NCBI GenBank assembly: GCA_030264375.1
Contig: JASCQW010000001.1
Location: forward strand, 159,314,299-159,378,298
Source: Carcharhinus longimanus
Lineage: Eukaryota
Direction: 5' to 3'
Length of the DNA: 64,000 nt
Part shown: positions 8,122 through 47,317 of the stretch, one piece after another
How the letters are laid out: each line of letters begins with the position of its first letter
How positions within the stretch are numbered: the stretch's first letter is position 1
Translations under genes and position numbers: made by a program
Notes under the pieces: generated by a model
Told to the model about the DNA's origin: nothing
The model's database searches: none
The model's input: the letters and a program-made list of their open reading frames with translations, nothing else

Positions 8122-8761
8122 TTAGACAGCAATTGGGTCCTGATTAGCAATTACATTGGACAGCCTGACTTGTAACTCTTCCTGTGTAGAGTACCTATTG
8201 GTGGAGTTAGTCCTGTTTTCAGCCAATCGGTATGCAGGGGCTGATTCTACGCTCGTTGCCATGGCGTTCTGTATGCTCAGAAAGGGTGTCTCTTCCCCTA
8301 TTCGTTCATCTTCAGTCTCACTGTCAGAGCTACAGCTCTCGGAGCTTGGATTGCCCTCGCTCTCCATTCTGTGTGAAATGTGGCCATTAGCCTTTGTTCT
8401 TTTCCCTTTCCTGCTGCTGGCCCCTTTCTTGGGCGACTCGAGGGCCGGCTCGTACTCCTGCGTGGTCTCGTACTCGTCGTCCTCGGCCACCCTCAGCGGG
8501 CTGGCCGGGATGCTGCCACTGTCCTTGATGGAGTTGCGGTACTGCTTGTAAGGGTCCTGCCTCTTCTCCCGTGGCCGAGGAGGGGTTATCAGAAGCAGAG
8601 GCCTCTCCTCCTCGATTAAGGGGCTTATGGCCACCGATGGCATGGATATAGTCAGGCTAGAGACCGGCGGCGACATCTCTGAATCGGGCGACTTGGGGGA
8701 CATTGGGGTCCTGAAGTCCACTGGCGACATTCTGGCCGGGGTGGTCATGGCAGAGACAAAC
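8122..8761 (-). CDS. NRG1: Terminal exon, a-type cytoplasmic tail: FVSAMTTPARMSPVDF...EYETTQEYEP...LSNVIANQDPIAV*
   Basis: attacag|GTTTGTC acceptor; TAA at 8122-8124. The ORF ends in the diagnostic NRG1 C-terminus ANQDPIAV. Confidence 0.97.
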
Positions 8762-10690: not shown

Positions 10691-10894
10691 CTTTCGCTAT
10701 GCGGTGAATCTCGGAGAGAGTCCGGAGTGTCTCTCGAGTTCCTCACACAGATAAGCATCTCTCGCCGACCTGCCACACCGTTGAGTCGCCCTCGGTGATT
10801 GATTGGGCTGGTGTGCCTGCTGGTTTCTACTGAAGAAGTTACAAGCACGGAGGGGCTGTCTGAGATGACACTTTCCGTTTGGCCTGTACTCCAA
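10691..10894 (-). CDS. NRG1: Cytoplasmic exon 3: WSTGQTESVISDSPSVLVTSSVETSRHTSP...RDSPHSE(R); read-through gives the c-tail ending PHSER*
   Basis: ggccacag|TTGGAGT...GAAAG|gtaagg; 204 bp, phase 2-2; contained in ORF 10687-10956. Confidence 0.94.
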
Positions 10895-13786: not shown

Positions 13787-13917
13787 CTGTGGCTGGGTGT
13801 GTGAGTAACTGTCGTAGAGTGATGGGTCGTCGATGTATAGTGACTGGTTGAGAACGAGGTTTCCGTTTCTCGCTCAATGACATGTTCAGTGGATCCTGGG
13901 TTTTTCATTATATATTG
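13787..13917 (-). CDS. NRG1: Cytoplasmic exon 2: QYIMKNPGSTEHVIERETETSFSTSHYTSTTHHSTTVTHTPSH(S)
   Basis: tgtttgtttgcag|CAATAT...AGCCACAG|gtatct; 131 bp, phase 0-2. Read manually; it is not in the ORF track. Confidence 0.95.
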
Positions 13918-16597: not shown

Positions 16598-16724
16598 ATT
16601 TGCCAACTGAACATTGTCTGCCGGAGGATTTGTATGGTGGGGCCCGTTCACAAGGTTTACCATGTTGTTTCGTTCAGATCGGAGACTCTGTCTTAGCCGG
16701 TCATGCAGCTTTTTCCGCTGTTTT
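16598..16724 (-). CDS. NRG1: Cytoplasmic exon 1: KQRKKLHDRLRQSLRSERNNMVNLVNGPHHTNPPADNVQLAN
   Basis: caatccag|AAAACAG...GCAAAT|gtaagt; 127 bp, phase 2-0. Nearly identical to the NRG1 juxtamembrane cytoplasmic sequence. Confidence 0.96.
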
Positions 16725-19595: not shown

Positions 19596-19698
19596 TTTGT
19601 CTTGCAGTACGCCACCACACACATGATGCCAACCACCAGGAGGGCAATACAGATCCCTGTTATCGTCAGCACTCGCTTCTGGTACAGCTCCTCAGCTT
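19596..19698 (-). CDS. NRG1: Transmembrane exon: AEELYQKRVLTITGICIALLVVGIMCVVAYCKT(K)
   Basis: ttctctcttcag|AAGCTGAG...AAGACAAA|gtaatc; 103 bp. CIALLVVGIMC is the NRG1 form; NRG2 has CVALLVVGIVC (recalled). Confidence 0.97.
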
Positions 19699-24694: not shown

Positions 24695-24718
24695 CCATAA
24701 ATTCAATTCCAAGATGCT
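24695..24718 (-). CDS. NRG1: Juxtamembrane stalk-1 microexon (K)HLGIEFM(E)
   Basis: ttctgcattggcag|AGCATCTTGGAATTGAATTTATGG|gtatgg; 24 bp, phase 1-1. Matches the NRG1 beta1 linker KHLGIEFME. Confidence 0.96.
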
Positions 24719-25354
24719 CTGCCAATGCAGAAAGTTGACAAAAATAATAAAAAAACAAGAAAAGAGAAAAAAAACACAAGGGAAAAAAAGTTTCAGAGAA
24801 AAGCAGTACAACATACTGGGGGAAAAATATCACACGAGTAACATGATTAGAGCCTGCACGTAAGAGACAATGGTGACATTCCAGAGGACACCGTGCTCAT
24901 ATAAGCTGCTTAATCCTGATGCAAAGTGCATGCTTTTCAAAAGAGGGAGAACAGATCCACACAAGCTCTAGGAGAAGAAACACCCCGAGGTCTGAAAATC
25001 TAGCCGGCAATTCTATCATCTGGAGGGACGAAATATAAGAGAACTTTCCGGTAATGATGCGAGGACATTTTGGGAATATTCAACTGATTTTTCTTTTTTC
25101 CGAGGTGTTGCGTTCCCTATCATGAGGTAGAGCGATGCCTTTCATAGTTTATCTGAACTCTGCAAGACGGCTCACTGGCTTTGCTACGACGGGTTCAAGC
25201 CCAGTTAAAAAAAAAGTTTGAAAAATTATAACATTTACATCCATGGCACCTGACTGTTGGTAACTGTGAAATTTTAAGGAGTGAGATTTATGACTAGGAA
25301 AGATGCGAATTGCAGCCTGATGTTTGTCTTCCCTTAATTAGGTATTAATTAGGT

Positions 25355-37686: not shown

Positions 37687-37715
37687 TCAGGGGGAGACAG
37701 AAGAAGTGGACGTAC
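37687..37715 (-). CDS. NRG1: beta3-type read-through tail STSTSSVSP* (secreted isoform)
   Basis: Reading through the beta donor gives AGT ACG TCC ACT TCT TCT GTC TCC CCC TGA. It starts STST like human beta3 (STSTPFLSLPE). Confidence 0.6.
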
Positions 37716-37774
37716 TGTAAAAACTGGCCATTACGTAGTTTTGGCAGCGATCACCAGTAAATTCATTTGGACAC
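37716..37774 (-). CDS. NRG1: EGF beta exon: CPNEFTGDRCQNYVMASFY
   Basis: ttgtcttgtcag|GTGTCCA...TTTTACA|gtacgt; 59 bp, phase 2-1. Peptide identical to recalled NRG1 beta. Confidence 0.97.
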
Positions 37775-38574
37775 CTGACAAGACAAATAAAATGAGAGAG
37801 AAAGAGAGGAGAGAGAAGATAAGTAACTGTCAGGATAGAGTCACCTTCAGCACCAGGCCTCATCACCTTGGTGTGGTCACTGTTTAATCCTTTTTTAACC
37901 TGGAAATCGTCATCTCTGCAACACTCAATAATTGCTGGCTTACGACAGCAAGAGAAAAAAAATTGTCATTCTGCATTTACCAGCCATGAAAATTCACCTC
38001 CTTCAATTGTGTCTGGAGTTGTATAGCCGAACCGAATTAAAGTGAGACAGTGCGCACTTACAAATTTAGATAAAGCAAAGTTTAATCCTCAATTCTGTAA
38101 TTTGGGAATGCCAGATTTCTACCAATTTACTGGCACTGTCAGCCGAGTCCCATTTTCCAAATGGTCACTTGTGTGTACAAGAGGAGATTGCTTATGTTCT
38201 ACTCCCTCGGAAAAGATGCTGTACAGTTCCTGTTTTAAATATTTTGGGACCATCAAACTCTGCTGGCGGGGAATGAAAAGGAGGGAGAGGATTTTAATAG
38301 CTGTAAACACACACTGCAGTGGTGAGGTACTGAATCTGTACTGTGCTGTTTCTCTCAGTGGAAATACAAAAAAAAGCAATAAGAACAGCAAACAGTACAA
38401 AGATTACTGAGGGCCTGGTTACACCATCAGAAGCTGCCCAGATCAAAGAAAAGAAATAGGCATTTTAAAAGTAGCTTTCTCTCTGAGTAGTGACAACACC
38501 AAGGGCTGTTTCTTTAGAGCTGCAGAGGGAAAGAGAGAAAAATAAAACACAGACATGATTATATCTTCACATAC

Positions 38575-38642
38575 GTTCAGGTATAAAGACCCTCATGGGT
38601 ACAGTCTCTGTACATCTCTCTCCGGTGAATCCGGGATCACAC
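38575..38642 (-). CDS. NRG1: EGF alpha exon: CDPGFTGERCTETVPMRVFIPE
   Basis: tttttaccctccag|GTGTGAT...CCTGAAC|gtatgt; 68 bp, phase 2-1. Resembles human NRG1 alpha CQPGFTGARCTENVPMKV (recalled). Confidence 0.93.
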
Positions 38643-38834
38643 CTGGAGGGTAAAAATGGCACATAAACAAGCAGAACAAATGATCTCAAACGGTCTAGGC
38701 ATGACGCATGCGTTGAAAATCACGGGTGAATTCACGTCGGAGGGGGGGGCTGACTGTTACAATCCGGCAGGTTTGGCTGCCTGCATTTAATGGCCAGTTA
38801 CCATTCCCCTGGCTGCCTTCTCCACTGAAGGTGG

Positions 38835-38957
38835 TGGTCGGAACTTTACCGCCCCGCCTGCCACAGAATCGGAGCGGGCGGACAACAGGAAGGTCCGTTG
38901 ACCTCGGGTGGGACTTTACGGGTTTTGGGACGAGCAAGGCTGTTAAAATCCTGCCCC
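38835..38957. mobile_element. MITE-like element about 190 bp upstream of the alpha exon
   Basis: GGTCGGAACTTTAC ... TTAAAATCCTGCCC; inverted homologue of 2289-2408. Confidence 0.65.
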
Positions 38958-39447
38958 AGTAACTTTTGCAGGGTTATTTATACGTTCGCACGTGACAGGA
39001 CAAGAAAATTGCCACTTTGCATAAGTTCATGTCTCTAGCATGCGACTTCAGGTTAATAATAACAACAGCCATTCTACATTCAACCCTTTTCAAATTTATA
39101 GGCATAAATGACACAGTGAATATAAGTGTATGTAATGGATGATTACCTGGTTTTGTTGTTTTTAATTTCCCTTGTAATGTATCAAGGCCCAAAGACTTAA
39201 TTCAAATTTAGAATATTTTCACAAAGAGTGGAACATTGTTTGCAAAGTTACAACAAGGGGCATCCCATTGCGTTCCTGCTATTTTGCACATTATTTACAA
39301 CTGGAGGAAGTCTATCACTCTGTTTCTAACTGTCTTCACAACAACTACAGCCTAATTTATTAGTTTGCAAGCCATGAAATCAAAAAGCAAAAAGTTGCCA
39401 ATCTAACACTCGCAAAATGCCCAGTAAATTAAGGGAAAAAAAACAGC

Positions 39448-39656
39448 AACCAAAAGGGAAAATGCTGGAAAATCTCAGCAGGCCTGGCAGTATCTAAGGA
39501 GAGAAAAGAGCTGACGTTCTGCCAGACAACATTGACAAAGAATCATCTGGACTTGAAACGTCAGCTCTTTTCTTACAGATGCTGCCAGACCTGCTGAGAT
39601 TTTCCAGCTTTTTCTCTTTTGGTTTCAGATTCCAGCATCCGCAGTAATTTGCTTTA
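39448..39656. mobile_element. Palindromic Penelope-like terminal remnant
   Basis: Inverted arms AAATGCTGGAAAATCTCAGCAGG...GAGCTGACGTT and AACGTCAGCTC...CCTGCTGAGATTTTCCAGC. Single-arm copies at 52255-52350 and 59628-59725. Confidence 0.7.
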
Positions 39657-39871
39657 GAAAAAAAAGCAGCAGATTGCTTAGTGTGAATCAGACACTTTGA
39701 GATAGGGAGTCTGAAGATCAGTGATCTGCTAACCCAAACACCTTTCTCTATATATATTTAAGAAAACATGGCCTCAGGGAATTTAAATCATTAAGTGATA
39801 TTTGGAATATCGTTTTGCCAAGTCTCTGACATTGCTTAGCCAACTTGTTTCATTTAATTTTCCTTTTCTTT

Positions 39872-40032
39872 GGGCGGCATGGTGGCACAGTGGTTAGCAC
39901 AGCTGCCTCACAGTGCCAGGGACACGGGTTCAATCCCTGGCTTGGGTCACTGTGCAGAGTTTGCACATTCTCCTCATGTCTGCGTGGGTTTCCTCCGGGT
40001 GCTCCGGTTTCCTCCCACAGTCCAAAGATGTG
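39872..40032 (+). mobile_element. HE1-type V-SINE 5' part, running into a gap
   Basis: Near-consensus head and V-domain. Confidence 0.88.
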
Positions 40033-41865
40033 NNNNNNNNNNNNNNNNNNNNNNNNNNNNNNNNNNNNNNNNNNNNNNNNNNNNNNNNNNNNNNNNNNNN
40101 NNNNNNNNNNNNNNNNNNNNNNNNNNNNNNNNNNNNNNNNNNNNNNNNNNNNNNNNNNNNNNNNNNNNNNNNNNNNNNNNNNNNNNNNNNNNNNNNNNNN
40201 NNNNNNNNNNNNNNNNNNNNNNNNNNNNNNNNNNNNNNNNNNNNNNNNNNNNNNNNNNNNNNNNNNNNNNNNNNNNNNNNNNNNNNNNNNNNNNNNNNNN
40301 NNNNNNNNNNNNNNNNNNNNNNNNNNNNNNNNNNNNNNNNNNNNNNNNNNNNNNNNNNNNNNNNNNNNNNNNNNNNNNNNNNNNNNNNNNNNNNNNNNNN
40401 NNNNNNNNNNNNNNNNNNNNNNNNNNNNNNNNNNNNNNNNNNNNNNNNNNNNNNNNNNNNNNNNNNNNNNNNNNNNNNNNNNNNNNNNNNNNNNNNNNNN
40501 NNNNNNNNNNNNNNNNNNNNNNNNNNNNNNNNNNNNNNNNNNNNNNNNNNNNNNNNNNNNNNNNNNNNNNNNNNNNNNNNNNNNNNNNNNNNNNNNNNNN
40601 NNNNNNNNNNNNNNNNNNNNNNNNNNNNNNNNNNNNNNNNNNNNNNNNNNNNNNNNNNNNNNNNNNNNNNNNNNNNNNNNNNNNNNNNNCACAACTTCCT
40701 GATTCAGGTAGTTTCAACACACTGGAATGACCTTTCTCGACGCTAGCCTCCCCAACAACTGTGGCTGAACCTCTCGCTTGTGCCTTTCTCCTTCAAATTA
40801 ATGACTGGGGGCTGAGTGAGTGCGCTAATCCAATGCTCATTCCTACTTTAGGCCCTCAGACTTTATGCGTGGCGTCTAACTAAACTATTATTAGCCTTCC
40901 ACCAATAAAAAGTGCTCAACTGACCTGACAATGAATGAAACATTTTTCTCAAGCTGACATATCCTACAGGGCACTGTGGTTTTGGGTTGATAACGAATAT
41001 TTAGAACTGCTCTTAACCTCGTTCCACTCAACAATGCGCTTCCTTAAATTGGGATAGGGAAGGGCGGGTTGGACTGCCAACATTGTTACATTTTTGCCCA
41101 TTACTATTGCGATCATGGCCAGTTGCTATGCTTTGTCAATATAACACATTAATTATAACATGGTAAAGCCCAAGCTGATTGATGGAGATGCCTGCGGGCA
41201 TTGCTTCATCGGGACTTTAAGCCAAGCATTACATCTGCATCCTATTTTATTTCAGTCGCTTGTACCAGCAAGGCTAATTGTTGCTGTGCAATGCGCGTAA
41301 AACTGGACGTGCATTGTCTGAGAAAATTATGGAATGGTGCACTTTTAGAATCTGGCTACAGGTCCAATTTCTATTATTTTTGAAATCTGTTTACTATTTC
41401 CATTTCAAATATTCCATTCAGCTGAAAATGGGTTGAATGGCGTCAGTGAATGTGAGGGCCACTTGCCACTGATCCAGTAACCAACCCACCCCCAAACACA
41501 TTCCCTCTCATTCACTGCTCAGTTACACATGGGTTGTACCATTTACTTTTCAATAGCCTCTTTGTTTGTTTTCTCGCAGTTGTGTTGGAACCTCCAATCT
41601 ATTTCATGTAATAACACAGTGACTTCAATGAGTTTTGAAGAAGTCACCGGTGTGATGAGAATTTAAGGGCGAGTGTTGAAGGAAGCTCTGAAATAGAAAG
41701 CAGGACTTAATGTGGGGAAAAGGGCATTGTGAAGACTTCAGACTACAAAGCATGTGACAGGAAAATTATTTTATCCTCACTGTTTATCTTAATTCTTCTA
41801 TAGATAAGTGTGTGCATTGGTGTGCATGTGTGTGTGCATGCGTGTGTGTGTGTGAGTGGCTTCTG

Positions 41866-42175
41866 TTTGATTCATTAGTGTCACAAGTAGGCTTACATCA
41901 ACACTGCAATGAAGTTACTGTGAAAATCCCCCCCCCCCCGTTTCCACACTCCAGCACCTGTTCAGATACACTGAGGGAGAATTTAGCATAGCCAATGCAC
42001 CTGACTAGCACGTCTTTCAGACTGTGGGAGGAAACTGGAGCACGCAGAGGAAACGGACTCAGACATGGGGAAAATGTGCAGACCCCAAACAAAGAGTGAC
42101 CCCCAAGCTGGGAATTGAACCTGGGTCCCTGGTGCTGTGAGGTAGCAGTGCTAACCACTGTGCCATCATGCTGCC
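41866..42175 (-). mobile_element. V-SINE variant with the alternative tail
   Basis: HE1 head and V-domain followed by ...TTCACAGTAACTTCATTGCAGTGTT...GTGACACTAATGAA instead of the CR1-like tail. Confidence 0.8.
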
Positions 42176-42179
42176 CAGT

Positions 42180-42471
42180 ATGTTTGCATGTCTGTGTCTA
42201 TGTATTAATGTGAGTGTTTGTGTATATCTGTGTGTGCGTCCCTGTCTGGTGCATCTGTGTGTATGTGTTTGAGTGTGTACTTGCATGTGTCTCGGGGGTG
42301 TTGTGAGCATGCCTGTGTCTTTATATGTGTGTTTGTGCATCTGCGTGTGTGTGCATGTCTGAGTGTATGTGTGCACATCCCTGTATGTGTGCTTGTCCTC
42401 ATGCATATCTGTGTGCATGTATGTCTGAGTATGTGATGGGGAGTTGTGTGTGTGTGTGTGTGTGTGTGTGT
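42180..42471. repeat. Degenerate (TG)n-rich tract ending in a perfect (TG)n
   Basis: Read directly. Other TG tracts at 7662-7686, 41805-41856 and 45677-45735; (GA)n at 24590-24618. Confidence 0.9.
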
Positions 42472-42799
42472 GGAGCGAGGGGAAGGCAGGGGGATAGTGT
42501 GTATGTGCAGGATGGACAATATACTTTTTACATTAAAAGTAAATAGCAATGCAGATGAAAATCTACAGTCAGAGATGCCACTGTTTTCTTGCCAATCCAT
42601 TCAATATATGCCATCCAATCCGTATTGCTTTTAAATACTGGGAGTCGCTATTACTCCACAGATATGCAATTTACAAACTGCTTTTGCACATAAAACGGCT
42701 GAAAGGCAGGCAAGTTTTTAAGTTAATAAATATTGTTGGAATTAAGTGGCATCAAATGGGCTTCTTTGTGGAGCCAATTAACAGAGAACCTTTCTCTTT

Positions 42800-43020
42800 A
42801 TTCTTTCATGGGCTGTGGGCGTCGCTGACAGGGCCAGCATTTGTTGTTTATCCCCAATTTCCCTTGAACTGAGTGGCTTGTTCAGCCATTTCAGAGGGTA
42901 GTTCAGTGTCAATCACATTGCTGTAGATCTGGACTCAGATGTAAGCTGGACTGGGTAATGACAGCAGATTTCTTTCCCGAAAGGACATTAGTGAACCAGG
43001 TGCTATTTTACAACGATAGT
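42800..43020 (-). mobile_element. SINE family B, 3' half
   Basis: CAGCAGATTTC...AAGGACATTAGTGAACCAG core. Confidence 0.75.
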
Positions 43021-43359
43021 TTGCCACCATCATACAATAGATATAATTGACTTCCCATTAAAGCATTAGCGATTGTACATTAATATTGAAATGGGAAATG
43101 GTCAATCTCTAGCTTGTTTTATAGTTTGTATCAGTTTAAGCCCCATAGTATTGTTGGCTCTTTTAGTCCCAAAATTGGTGGAAACCTTATATTAAACTTG
43201 ATGGAATCGACGGGGTTAGGTGACAAAAAGACCTGGTGATTAAGGAGGGCTGGCAAAGGAGAGGTGTAGTTACCAGTTGCACACAGGCAACCAGTTCAAC
43301 ATTAAATCTGTTGCATTATCTGCAAGGCTGCTCCTCTCATGGCCTCCATCAGAAAGATG

Positions 43360-43740
43360 TAGAAATATAGATACTAGAATCAGGAATCGGCCATTTGGCC
43401 CTTCAAGCCCGCTCTGCCATTCATCTTGATCATGGTTGATCGTCGAATTCAATATCCTGATCCCCCCTTTCCTTCCATATCCCTTGATCCCTTTAGCTCC
43501 AAGTGCTATATTTAGTTTCTTCTTGAAATCACACAAAATTTTGGCCTCAGCTACTTTCTGTGGTAGAGAATTCCACACATTCACCACTCTCTGGGTGAAG
43601 AAATTGCTCCTCATCTCAGTTCTAAAAGGTTTACCCCTTATCCTCAAACTATGATCCCCTGATTCTGGACTCCCTCACCATCAGGGACATTCTTTCTGAA
43701 TCTACCCTGTTAGAATTTTATAAATTTCTCTGAGATCCTG
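43360..43740 (-). mobile_element. CR1 LINE 3' fragment
   Basis: RIRGKPFRTEMRSNFFTQRVVNVWNSLPQK motif. Confidence 0.9.
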
Positions 43741-44264
43741 TGAGGGACGTGCAACACTCTCTTTGTACAGAGGAAGAAGGCACGCTTGGTCTTCAGCACT
43801 CTGAGCAAAAAGAAATCAAGATCTGTCCGGAAACTAACAGGGAGACTACAGTCATGGAATAATTAAGCATTCCCAAAGCAGGTTGAGCTCCTGTCTTTAC
43901 AGACTAGGAATGGGCAATGTGTTAACACAGTGAAGGGTGCTGAAACATTCTATCAGCCCAAAGCATGGCTTCTTCTCTCTGTATAACCCATGTGTTCCTG
44001 AGAGTGGCAGATCCTCACTCCTAAACATGCATGTGTGCACACACAATTCCTTAAATTTCAACATTATCCAAGGGTTAGGTCAGCCTCAGATTGTTTCTAC
44101 AGGAATGGATTGACAGGAGGAGCGAGCCATTCCAATCTCAGTGGCAACAAGAGACCTGGAAGAGCCGGTTTATTTTTATCACTGTGGCTGATCTGGTTTT
44201 GGACTGATAATGTCTACGCTGCAAACTGACTGGGCTACACTGATCAAAATTGTGTCAGGGCTGC

Positions 44265-44885
44265 ACAGACTGGACGCAGGGATGATGTTTTCTCTGGCTG
44301 CGGGGGGAGGGGAGGTGTTGAGAATAAGGGGTCACAGTCTCAGGATACAGGTTGAGAACTGAGATGAGGAACAACTTTTTCAATTTGAGAGTGGTGAACC
44401 TGTGGAATTCTCTGCCACAGAGAGGGGCGGTATGGTGGCATAGCGGTTAGCACTGCTGCCTCACAGCGCCAGGGACCCGGGTTCAATTCCTGGCTTGGGT
44501 CACTGGCACTGTGGAGTTTGCACATTCTCCCTGTGTCTGCATGGGTTTCCTCCCAAAGTCCAAAGATGCGCAGGTTAGATGGATTGGCATGCTAAGTTCT
44601 TCTACAATGTCAGGGAGACTAGCAAGGTAAATATGTGGGTTTACGGGGATAGGGCCTGGGTGGGATTGTGGTCGGTGCAGACTCGATGGGCCAAGTGGCC
44701 TTTTCCTGCGCTGTAGGGATACTATGATTCTATGAATTCACTGAATATATTTAAGAAGGAAATAGATAGGTTTCTAGACATTGAGGGGTATGGGGTGAGT
44801 GTGCAAGTAAGGTTTTGAGATAAAGGATCAACCAGACTTATACTGAATGGCAGAACAGACTCAAAGGGCCAGATAGCCTACACCT
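44265..44885 (+). mobile_element. CR1 3' fragment interrupted by an HE1 SINE (about 44423-44735)
   Basis: CR1 sequence GTGGAATTCTCTGCCACAGAG breaks off and resumes as ATTCACTGAATATATTTAAG after a complete SINE. Confidence 0.85.
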
Positions 44886-46629
44886 ACTAGTAGCAGCTAG
44901 ACTGCATGGAACAGCCATGGAAATAGGGCTTGCTTGGAGTGGAAATTGCTTCTGCTTAAAGATCCATGTACAAGAGATGTCAGCTGCATTGGCTCGGGTT
45001 AATCTGAACACCATTGTATTGACATTGGTCTTTGGTTACATGGCAAAATGGATGGCAGTGAATCAGTAACTCATATTACACTCCACCCAATGTTCTTTCC
45101 CATTACAGCCACCAGGTCCTTACTGCCCATTTTCATCATCTGGGTGTGTCCATTGTACAAAACAACTTGCCACCTGCAGAGGTCTGGTGTCCATCTGAAG
45201 TGGTGGATGGATATAGGTTTAACAGTGTGCTGTTCCTAGCAAAGTTCATCCCTCTGTCACATGGCAGCTTCTTTGCTGCACCAGTCATCCAGCCACCCAT
45301 CTATTCGTATGACTGTACTGAGTCATGGGAATGATGTAAGATACAGGCTTAATGAGCTTTGCACAGATACATGGCATAGTCCTCGTCTGGAGTTCACATG
45401 CACATTATCAGATGTCACTGAACACTGGCCACAATTAGAACTCAAGGTGGCTGCCTGCCCCCTACCCCAGTCCCTTTGAGGTCAATTACAGAGCACCCAA
45501 TTGCTGATGTGTCCAATATCTGCTACCACTAGTCAAATAGTGGAACCATGATCTGATCTGTGCTTTGATGGGAGTGGAGCATAAGGGATGTCAGATTTAA
45601 TTCATAACCAAGACTAGATTTCAATGCATTAATGTCACATCGATTCTTACAGGCATGTTATAGTACTAAACTAATTAGTGTGTGTGAGTGTGTGAGTGTG
45701 TGAGTGTGTGTGTGAGTGTGAGTGTGTGTGTGTGTGGTGTGAAAGTGCATGTAGGTGTGCGTGTATGTAGACGCAAGAATGTGTATATGGTTGGAGAGGG
45801 TTGTTCACAATGGTACCACATATAGCAGGCAGCTGATGGGTATTCTGAGTGGGTCAAGGAAGCACTTAATAAAGCAAGGTTCAAAGCTTCCCTTAAAAAC
45901 CAGAAATAATGACTCCCTATTTCATCGGTTAGTATTATAGTCAAAAATTGTTCAGGACAGTGGCCGGGGAGGGGGAAGCACATTGTACTACAGCAGAGAA
46001 AACACCAATATTTCTCAAGTGGATGCTTTGAATGTAAGCAGTAAGACAATGGGAAGGAGTTCAAAGGACAGCTGTGTGGGCCATGCAGCTTTTGGACAAT
46101 GTATCAGCTAATTAGAACTTGAACAATAAAAGAACCAGTTCAGGCTTGGATTTGACAATTGGGTGAATACGCATTTAAATCTTGAGCCAATGGTGAGGCA
46201 CTGACTCCTACCATCACTATCACTTTACTCCTAAAACAGTATGAACATACTTTCAGCTTAAACCATCCTTGTTTTGAAATTTTATCAAATTGAAATCTAT
46301 ACATAGACTTTAGCGTGACAGTGTGGTGTTGAAAGTGAAAGGGAGAGTTTGTAAGTATTGTTATATAAGTAATATAATGTATGATTCGAGTGGAGGCCGG
46401 ATGCTGTTGTAGTTTGGGTCTTGTTTTTAAAGGGAGGATAATGGTTTTGAAGTACAATATCTGGGAAACCTACGAAGGCCCTATCATATTGATAAACTGG
46501 GGGCTGTGATGACAATCCAGTCACACATTATGGCCGGGTTCCAGTAATAAGTAACATGAGACGTCGCATGTGCTCGGGAGAGAACCTTGGACACCAAAGC
46601 TCTCCCCCATTGAAGATTTTCCTCACTTG

Positions 46630-46892
46630 GTATGCAGGGAAAAGTTTAGAGGAGATGTGCGAGGCGAGTTTTTTTTTTACACAGAGGGTGGTAAATGTCT
46701 GGAATCTGCTGCCTGGGGAGGTGGTGGGAGCAGGAATGATAGCAGCATTTAGACGAATACATGACTAGGGTGGGAATGGAAGAATTTGGACTCCGTAAGT
46801 GCATACAGTTTTAGATTAGGCAGGCATCATGATTGGCGCAGGCTTGGAGGGCCAAAAGGCCTGTTCCTATGCTGTACTGTTCTTTGTTCTTT
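46630..46892 (+). mobile_element. CR1 LINE 3' fragment
   Basis: FFTQRVVNVWNLLPGEVV motif and tail CCTGTTCCTATGCTGTACTGTTCTTTGTTCTTT. Confidence 0.85.
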
Positions 46893-47196
46893 GGGTCTAT
46901 TGTAGAATAACTGTGGAGATTGAGTGCCATAAGCAGTCAACGACTCATTAGTGTTGTGTCATGTGATTGCCTGGATGAATTATTTGGATCTTTAGTTCCA
47001 ATGTTCCAAGCACTCTCGCAATTGGGATGCAAGATCTGGGTTCCAGTAATGTTCTCAGACTGCGGTTCAACATGGATTATTAACAGCTGACCAGCGCCAC
47101 TTGTAACAAAATATGCAGCAATAAAACCTCTTATACAGCGACACAAGAGCAGACATGTGGAAAGAAGAGCATGAAGGAAAGGTTGGATTCACTTAC

Positions 47197-47317
47197 TGAC
47201 AGGAGAGTTTATTAATACCATTGATAACGAAACACTGTCCTCCGTTCACACAATAGTGCCGATTGGTCTCGTTGCATGGCCTCGCGTGGCCTGACCAAGG
47301 TGTAGGTGAAGTGGTGG
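47197..47317 (-). CDS. NRG1: Neuregulin common EGF-domain exon (Cys1-Cys4): xTTSPTPWSGHARPCNETNRHYCVNGGQCFVINGINKLSC(Q)
   Basis: Minus strand reads ttcttcccctctgcag|CCACCACT...TCCTGTCA|gtaagt. It is 121 bp, phase 1-2, with CX7CX5CX10C spacing and a CVNGG motif, and joins in frame to the alpha and beta exons. The peptide itself is more NRG2-like (see findings). Confidence 0.92.

Follow-up and report, generated by a model that had tools for sequence, protein, structure and literature searches.

The locus considered here raises the question of why a shark neuregulin gene that ends in an NRG1-type tail carries a common EGF exon resembling that of NRG2. The window, i.e. the whole stretch of 64,000 nucleotides analysed (Carcharhinus longimanus, contig JASCQW010000001.1, forward-strand positions 159,314,299 to 159,378,298), contains the exons listed in Table 1. 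The original prediction described a mosaic ligand, with an NRG2-like EGF exon on an NRG1 backbone, and proposed that it reflects either an ancestral NRG1/2 module or exon conversion. Of these, retention of the ancestral module in sharks, with the longer loop arising later, is the better supported by hagfish character states and by phylogenetic trees.

The common EGF exon and the identity of the gene

The predicted translation of the common EGF exon, its 121-bp length, its 10-residue loop and an N-E-T sequon after Cys1 were all confirmed, and the mammalian sequences given for comparison match database proteins (NRG1, P0102/P0122; NRG2, P0153/P0338). The exon is 67-72% identical to several NRG2 exons versus 33% to mammalian NRG1; by residue, 25-28 of 39 positions are identical in 15 of 19 NRG2 rows (22-26 in the others), compared with 11-21 of 39 in 12 rows of bony-vertebrate NRG1, and 13 in both pig and platypus. 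A similarity search with the exon gave matches far above chance (E 6e-20 against 5.8 billion proteins), and EGF could be aligned with it gap-free from Cys1 to Cys4 (query 14-39, chain 6-31).

Table 1. Exons of the neuregulin gene and the neighbouring assembly gap, in window coordinates
Feature	Position	Strand	Remarks
Common EGF exon, Cys1-Cys4	47197..47317	minus	121 bp, AG/GT ends, 10-residue Cys3-Cys4 loop
Assembly gap	40033..40689	.	657 N, within the common-alpha intron
Alpha exon, Cys5-Cys6 and alpha stalk	38575..38642	minus	68 bp, ends in PMRVFIPE stretch
Beta exon, Cys5-Cys6 and beta stalk	37716..37774	minus	59 bp
Stalk-1 mini-exon	24695..24718	minus	24 bp
Transmembrane (TM) exon	19596..19698	minus	103 bp
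Cytoplasmic exon 1	16598..16724	minus	
Cytoplasmic exon 2	13787..13917	minus	
Cytoplasmic exon 3	10691..10894	minus	
Last exon, a-tail	8122..8761	minus	NRG1-type C-terminus, stop at 8122

The EGF domain is divided between Cys4 and Cys5, such that the common exon is followed by alternative alpha and beta exons. A single common EGF exon was found at the locus, where it follows the Ig and type III exons and precedes the alpha, beta, stalk, TM and tail exons; no bony-type common exon was detected over the 145 kb that precede the alpha exon (N makes up 15,058 of the 120,000 bases lying outside the window). The alpha exon translation is identical in P0012 and P0020, and that of the beta exon is common to shark, amphibian, bird and mammal NRG1. 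Read past its donor, the beta exon reaches a stop near 37689, probably giving a beta3-like secreted form. Splicing in C. longimanus would follow this arrangement, judging from splice signals and from relatives; a sequencing-run search with the last exon listed no RNA run for the species.

The gene is the ordinary NRG1 of cartilaginous fish, as is apparent from the tail and Ig trees, the type III exon and the synteny with WRN. Nine cartilaginous orthologues fall inside the NRG1 clade in the tail tree (support 96/95) and cartilaginous sequences group with NRG1 in the Ig tree (98/98), both trees being built from relatives rather than from the window's own exons; the a-tail in the window is 85% identical to one cartilaginous orthologue versus 52% to the species' own NRG2. 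Upstream of the window exons lie the NRG1 Ig exons (C1:159.502 and 159.493 Mb) and a cysteine-rich type III exon (159.449 Mb) that is 92% identical to P0015. In agreement with NRG1 synteny, WRN exonuclease exons occur on the same strand ~1.0 Mb upstream, head to head with a Pur gene, WRN and a Pur gene being upstream of human NRG1 also. The MAK16 side is an exception, either not conserved or not found, as the only match is on another contig (C166), so MAK16 is uninformative as a marker. The Pur paralogues beside NRG1 and NRG2 are indistinguishable because most of both frames read N.

A complete, separate NRG2 is present on contig C109, and comparison with it alters how the backbone should be viewed. 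The beta, stalk-1, TM and a-tail exons had all been called clearly NRG1; this holds for the a-tail, but the other three are not diagnostic, since they are near-identical in the NRG2 of the same genome, which shares 18 of 19 residues with the window in the beta exon (counted by eye), 6 of 7 in stalk-1 and 32 of 34 in TM. The term mosaic is thus not apt, as the supposed NRG1 exons adjacent to the common exon are common to shark NRG2 and the same combination occurs in hagfish.

Distribution of the loop and evidence for a probable ancestral exon

The exon is typical of cartilaginous fish. It is matched at 92-98% by 24 proteins, 23 of which, from 13 sharks and rays, are named NRG1 and already annotated (e.g. 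RefSeq pro-neuregulin-1 of Hypanus, Pristis, Scyliorhinus, Heterodontus and Leucoraja), with identities reaching 98%; these relatives agree with the window in loop length and in the alpha and beta exons. In the chimaera Callorhinchus (P0028) the common exon is 64% identical to that of the window, with the same loop length. None of the cartilaginous NRG1 examined has the typical 13-residue loop, the Cys3-Cys4 loop being of 10 residues in all 35 proteins that combine the cartilaginous-type motif with an NRG1 C-terminus, versus 13 or 15 in all 106 others in the same tally; P0011, without alpha and beta exons, was omitted from a loop-length tally. A loop of 13 is found in bichir, paddlefish, eel and salmon NRG1, both 13 and 15 occur within frogs, and amphibian NRG1 retains V-x-N-G-I at the loop start. 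All 120 of the best matches listed have a loop of 10, and their informative names all say NRG2. The 13-15-residue loop marks bony vertebrates, not the NRG1 gene as a whole.

Bony-vertebrate NRG1/heregulin (PDB 1HAE, 1HRE, 3U7U, 7MN5) shares the overall layout of Ig, type III, common, alpha, beta, stalk, TM and tail exons, and is like the window gene residue for residue in the beta exon, in its tail clade and in its WRN neighbourhood. By contrast, in addition to its longer loop, it has Leu, Val or Phe after the His where shark NRG1 has Ala, and mostly lacks the sequon after Cys1. Shark NRG1 models also join Ig directly to the EGF exon, unlike mammal and frog NRG1, the Ig-to-EGF spacer of which has no match in the shark locus. 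Jawed-vertebrate NRG2 has in common with shark NRG1 the 10-residue loop, His-Ala-Arg before Cys1, the sequon and Leu-Ser before Cys4, yet differs in locus, in Tyr-Tyr after Cys3, in Val before Cys3 and in the Ig and tail regions.

The one jawless-fish copy of the common exon available for comparison (Myxine, P0279) shows 58-62% identity with cartilaginous NRG1 proteins (56% with the window) and 52-62% with NRG2, compared with 32-48% with bony NRG1; its C-terminus is NRG1-like. Hagfish and lamprey neuregulins (P0279 Myxine, P0256 Eptatretus, P0166 Petromyzon) combine an NRG2-like Ig and EGF region with an NRG1-like beta exon, TM and C-terminal end, as does the shark gene; the P0256 and P0166 records are without the common exon, the Myxine loop is of 12 rather than 10 residues, and these genes may be orthologous either to NRG1 or to NRG2. 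A lamprey, coelacanth or lungfish NRG1 common exon was not seen among the matches listed (best 120 of 3096 and best 120 of 2949) or among the best 150 representatives.

The states that shark NRG1 shares with NRG2, i.e. Arg in the region before Cys1, Asn after Cys1, Ser/Thr in the sequon and Leu-Ser before Cys4, are also those of hagfish. Other positions match bony NRG1 but differ from NRG2 (Phe after Cys3, Val/Ile at the following residue, Asn at +4 and, in some, Pro before Cys1), and the two residue types interleave along the exon. In relative-rate comparisons the cartilaginous exon is closer than the bony one to hagfish states in all 39 cases, p being <0.05 singly in 14 of the 39, which are not independent of one another. 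Both exon trees place all NRG2, including that of sharks, in one clade (97/94; 95/88) that leaves out shark NRG1 and the window-type exon, and in both the bony NRG1 stem is long (0.37, 0.61); a sister position of the shark NRG1 exon to all NRG2 is not rejected (p-AU 0.41). It is therefore probable (roughly 0.8) that the NRG2-like common exon preserves the EGF module inherited from the NRG1/NRG2 common ancestor, the resemblance to NRG2 most likely arising because sharks kept the ancestral form and the bony-vertebrate gene changed.

With such a history, bony-vertebrate NRG1 would, after the duplication, have had its common exon remodelled, gaining three residues in the loop and a bulkier one after the His and, in most lineages, losing the sequon, and lungfish and tetrapod NRG2 would have had the beta exon remodelled. 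Sharks would have undergone neither change, such that each shark gene would look mosaic only against mammals. The beta exon of shark and many teleost NRG2 does resemble that of NRG1, and that of lungfish, bird and mammal NRG2 differs.

Loop length by itself polarises poorly, the loop being of 12 residues both in hagfish and in this genome's NRG3. NRG3 also has several states in common with bony NRG1, among which it is placed in the LG+G4 exon tree (92/97, long branch); together with the 12-residue loops, this is compatible with a long-loop ancestor and later shortening. The exon trees (40 columns) are without NRG1 monophyly, the grouping having support of 74/68 with NRG3 inside and being absent from the best tree of the second analysis (p-AU 0.21).

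Less probable alternatives: conversion, shortening and mis-assembly

The main competing possibility is that NRG2 overwrote all or part (e.g. the loop) of the NRG1 common exon in the cartilaginous stem, >400 million years ago, which assumes that an NRG1/NRG3 ancestor already had a long loop. The 12-residue loops of NRG3 and hagfish, and the position of NRG3 with bony NRG1 in the LG+G4 tree, are in its favour, though an NRG1 clade that excludes NRG3 is also not rejected (p-AU 0.39). Shark NRG1 and most shark NRG2 share a Lys, three residues ahead of Cys4, at a position that is Gln in bony NRG2 and hagfish, but Lys is likewise usual there in bony NRG1. A union of shark NRG1 with shark NRG2 is left unrejected by AU tests (p 0.121 and 0.142), yet is 10-15 log-likelihood units worse and does not occur in the best trees. 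The alpha, beta and stalk DNA is very alike between the shark paralogues (5 of 6 fourfold sites in alpha), so exchange between the two loci is not unthinkable; against this, the NRG1-type and NRG2-type residues alternate without a tract, the Tyr-Tyr and Val states common to cartilaginous and bony NRG2 are missing from shark NRG1, and the exons differ in length (121 versus 124 bp). Synonymous identity to the species' own NRG2 is not raised in the common exon (3 of 10 fourfold sites, 11 of 24 codons) relative to TM (6 of 16 fourfold sites) and the a-tail (12 of 47). Recent conversion can thus be rejected; synonymous sites would be saturated for an event older than the shark-chimaera split, so the test bears on recent conversion only. 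Given no conversion signal, and NRG2-like residues that are mostly hagfish states too, the conversion alternative in the original prediction did not gain support, and its ancient form is improbable.

Less probable still is an independent shortening of the cartilaginous NRG1 loop by two or three residues, converging on the length found in NRG2. Loop length is labile, as the frog, hagfish and NRG3 loops exemplify, and the loop is reported to be flexible in the ErbB4 complex (PMC7566517). Such shortening would, however, need to reproduce nearly the residues of NRG2 as well as its length, the Leu-Ser ending is already present in hagfish, and shortening does not account for the NRG2-like residues elsewhere in the exon.

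The intronic gap in the assembly could in principle hide a mis-join, with an exon from another locus, or a mislabelled NRG2, brought next to the NRG1 exons. This can be rejected, given orthologues with the same exon order and transcript-length contigs: the same exon is in the NRG1 models of the 13 named sharks and rays, and four Logan contigs (2.4-2.8 kb) encode 594-residue proteins comprising Ig, this exon, alpha, TM and tail, so providing the predicted join of the common exon to alpha and the NRG1 tail. The complete NRG2 elsewhere and the lack of a bony-type exon in the 145 kb searched upstream of alpha, gaps aside, argue likewise, leaving a mis-join with a negligible probability.

Ligand properties and divergence of the neuregulin pair

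From established NRG1 biology, the common exon would be spliced to either alpha or beta, the precursor would be shed, and the shark EGF domain would activate ErbB3 and ErbB4, the beta form being the potent one; family membership and the conserved beta exon likewise suggest binding to and activation of both receptors. As ligands, shark NRG1-beta and NRG2-beta are predicted to resemble each other far more than their mammalian counterparts do. The shark form of the exon may also change ErbB3/ErbB4 preference, as originally proposed. Position 3, position 24 and Pro29 of human NRG1 are reported to affect ErbB3 binding more than ErbB4 binding (PMC7566517). Shark NRG1 is a natural variant at these sites, where position 3 is Ala, position 24 is Asn and Pro29 is absent, such that a binding comparison would be informative on the evolution of ErbB3/ErbB4 ligand preference.

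A broader, tentative proposal is that the original neuregulin ligand of jawed vertebrates is still in use in cartilaginous fish, with shark NRG1-beta and NRG2-beta being nearly equivalent at the receptor, and that the human ErbB3-tuning features (Leu3, Lys24 and the Pro29 loop) are confined to bony vertebrates, having arisen after myelin and the NRG1/NRG2 split. Divergence of the pair would then have been reciprocal, affecting the common exon of NRG1 and the beta exon of NRG2, with NRG2 also diverging as an ancestral type III exon decayed. Shark NRG2 still shows a type III-like exon, which contains a stop codon; type III forms of shark NRG2 were absent from the 51 cluster members listed, which cover five shark and ray NRG2 (46 plus 5 representatives). 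The comparison indicates that NRG1 and NRG2 were nearly one ligand early on, and places the origin of the longer human NRG1 loop on the stem of bony vertebrates, after their divergence from cartilaginous fish and before bichir and tetrapods parted. Many sharks have an annotated copy of this gene, which is in itself ordinary; the value lies in the comparison, and no new mechanism is opened. A literature search, thin for the subscription journals in which the classic studies of heregulin mutagenesis and neuregulin evolution appeared, gave no paper dealing with the EGF loop of shark NRG1. Within cartilaginous NRG1, the window is alone among 10 rows in having Thr in place of Ser in the sequon, and otherwise nothing notable differs.

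Gene identity and the EGF exon

A neuregulin gene has its 3' half in the window, and the gene is NRG1. The locus runs from Ig exons through a type III cysteine-rich exon to the EGF exon; nine cartilaginous orthologues fall inside NRG1 in a tree of the tail (support 96/95) and group with NRG1 in an Ig tree (98/98), a union of their Ig with that of shark NRG2 being rejected (p-AU 0.008). On the same strand, ~1.0 Mb upstream, is WRN, arranged head to head with a Pur gene, which is the setting of human NRG1. MAK16 was not found beside NRG1, its sole match being on another contig; it and a third Pur gene lie away from NRG1 at G000:C166:11216869 and 19527266 (loci L034, L035). The separate NRG2 locus for which the original prediction called is present, complete, on contig C109, and an NRG3-like gene is on C168; both labels follow likeness to named NRG2 proteins, NRG3 being presumed.

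Exons of the neuregulin gene in the window
Feature	Position	Strand	Remarks
Common EGF exon	47317-47197, 121 bp	minus	AG/GT ends; 10-residue Cys3-Cys4 loop; N-E-T sequon
Alpha exon	38642-38575	minus	
Beta exon	37774-37716	minus	
Stalk-1, TM, then four tail exons	after beta	minus	

The EGF exon had been described accurately from the start in length, loop and sequon. Its identity is 64-72% with most NRG2 exons sampled and 28-54% with 12 bony-vertebrate NRG1 exons (33% with pig and platypus). Of the 25 candidates from a homologue search with the exon, 24 were 92-98% identical to it; 23 of these bear the name NRG1 (13 sharks and rays) and one is an unnamed Logan protein. The loop has 10 residues in shark, ray and also chimaera NRG1, not the 13 expected of a typical NRG1. 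The 594-residue proteins encoded by four Logan contigs (2.4-2.8 kb) cluster with skate NRG1 and run from Ig through EGF exon, alpha and TM to tail, a continuity which nothing but a spliced transcript could give; the joint from EGF exon to beta appears in annotated models only. Given the orthologous exons and transcript-length contigs, an assembly artefact is rejected, its probability being negligible. No second, bony-type common exon turned up in the 145 kb upstream of the alpha exon, the 120 kb past the window containing 15,058 N.

Loop length and the apparent mosaic

Among the proteins collected, the loop has 10 residues in all 35 cartilaginous-type proteins with an NRG1 C terminus and 13 or 15 in all 106 others with that C terminus, including paddlefish, eel and salmon; that of bichir is 13. 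The long form therefore goes back at least to the bony-vertebrate stem. EGF aligns gap-free to the shark exon across Cys1-Cys4, and frog NRG1 keeps the V-x-N-G-I loop start, with residues added after it. A 15-residue loop, a further insertion, occurs in many frogs (proteins P0032-P0091; 27 of 120 proteins tallied).

The original prediction regarded the beta, stalk-1 and TM exons as clearly NRG1, and the ligand as a mosaic; neither view survives. In NRG2 of the same genome these exons are identical at 18/19, 6/7 and 32/34 residues (for beta, 1/19 residues and 3/59 bases differ by eye), and NRG2 beta exons of many teleosts are also similar, those of lungfish, bird and mammal having diverged; the three are thus shared ancestral exons and do not mark NRG1. 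Comparison with mammals misleads in both directions. When the Ig-EGF-TM region of a hagfish neuregulin (Myxine, P0279) was the query, the best 120 of 2949 matches all had 10-residue loops and were NRG2 wherever the name was informative, and the C-terminal ends of hagfish and lamprey neuregulin are NRG1-like, so the hagfish protein has the shark gene's combination. The EGF exon is genuine and conserved, and the gene that bears it is a known one, with orthologues already annotated in RefSeq.

At the DNA level, NRG1 and NRG2 of this genome hardly differ over the stalk-1 and beta exons with their flanking intron (24695-24740 and 37690-37780; NRG2 loci L033 and L021), where splicing-control elements have likely been retained since duplication. 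In the alpha exon 5/6 fourfold sites are alike between the two genes. PMC4494069 lists NRG1 and NRG2 as sharing alternative exons since jawed vertebrates. A literature search whose scope excluded most subscription journals found no paper on the shark NRG1 EGF loop, and the accessible parts of PMC1618406, PMC2834686, PMC4914847 and PMC8672417 do not mention it.

Ancestral retention or conversion

Of the two origins originally proposed, retention of the EGF exon from the ancestor is favoured, with a probability of about 0.8. Column by column, the states it shares with NRG2 are mostly hagfish states too; it has Phe after Cys3, Asn at +4 and Lys at -3 in common with bony NRG1, whereas Tyr-Tyr and Val, which cartilaginous NRG2 shares with bony NRG2, are absent from it. 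The cartilaginous exon was nearer hagfish in 39/39 relative-rate comparisons, which are not independent (14 individually significant). Two exon trees (40 columns) unite all NRG2 without shark NRG1 (97/94, 95/88), the bony NRG1 stem being long; for the exon they do not establish NRG1 monophyly (74/68; p-AU 0.21), a point against retention.

An old conversion is improbable, in that NRG1-type and NRG2-type residues alternate along the exon and its fourfold sites are alike with the genome's NRG2 at 3/10, no higher than in TM (6/16) or tail (12/47), although such sites are blind to very old events. Uniting shark NRG1 with shark NRG2 costs 10-15 log units, yet is not rejected (p-AU 0.121 and 0.142). 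Conversion, or a long-loop ancestor, gains from the 12-residue loops of NRG3 and hagfish (one jawless-fish exon) and from NRG3, whose states are partly common to bony NRG1, nesting among bony NRG1 in one tree, although a clade of NRG1 excluding NRG3 is not rejected (p-AU 0.39). That the loop shortened independently is harder still to credit.

Receptor binding and N-terminal exons

As is established for NRG1, the precursor would be shed, and its EGF domain would activate ErbB4 and ErbB3/ErbB2. In one review (PMC11060329) the affinity of NRG2-beta for both receptors is relatively high and that of NRG2-alpha weak; a 10-residue loop is evidently compatible with binding both. Another review (PMC8064692) makes residue 45, in the alpha/beta exon, the determinant of potency; since the shark beta exon equals that of mammalian NRG1, this determinant is unchanged. 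In human NRG1, PMC7566517 reports, the loop is flexible, His2 and Leu3 substitutions harm ErbB3 binding more than ErbB4, and selectivity for ErbB4 results when changes at 2, 24 and 29 are combined. In the shark exon His2 is retained, position 3 is Ala, position 24 is Asn and Pro29 is absent, and on this basis the shark ligand is predicted to lean modestly toward ErbB4 on human receptors; shark receptors may have co-evolved. The evolutionary insight that the exon offers is modest.

At the NRG2 locus (L017, G000:C109:39028105-39028686, minus), a cysteine-rich, hydrophobic, type III-like frame lies between Ig and EGF exons, a position equivalent to that in NRG1; it shares 30% identity with the type III exon of NRG1, carries a GT donor and is interrupted by a single in-frame TAA. 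An N terminus of similar hydrophobic character is found in zebrafish nrg2a isoform X21 (P0159); none of the 51 listed cluster members of shark and ray NRG2 has a type III N terminus, and mammalian NRG2 is not known to have a type III form. The frame suggests that the type III exon may predate the NRG1/2/3 split and be decaying or unannotated in NRG2. The Ig-to-EGF spacer of pig and frog NRG1 had no match in G000:C1:159378299-159498298 (L060-L071), shark models joining Ig straight to the EGF exon, as in NRG2. Downstream of the second Ig exon, at G000:C1:159488131-159488220, a short exon-like match with an internal stop, 73% identical to the alternative end of protein P0197, perhaps represents an Ig-only truncated form.
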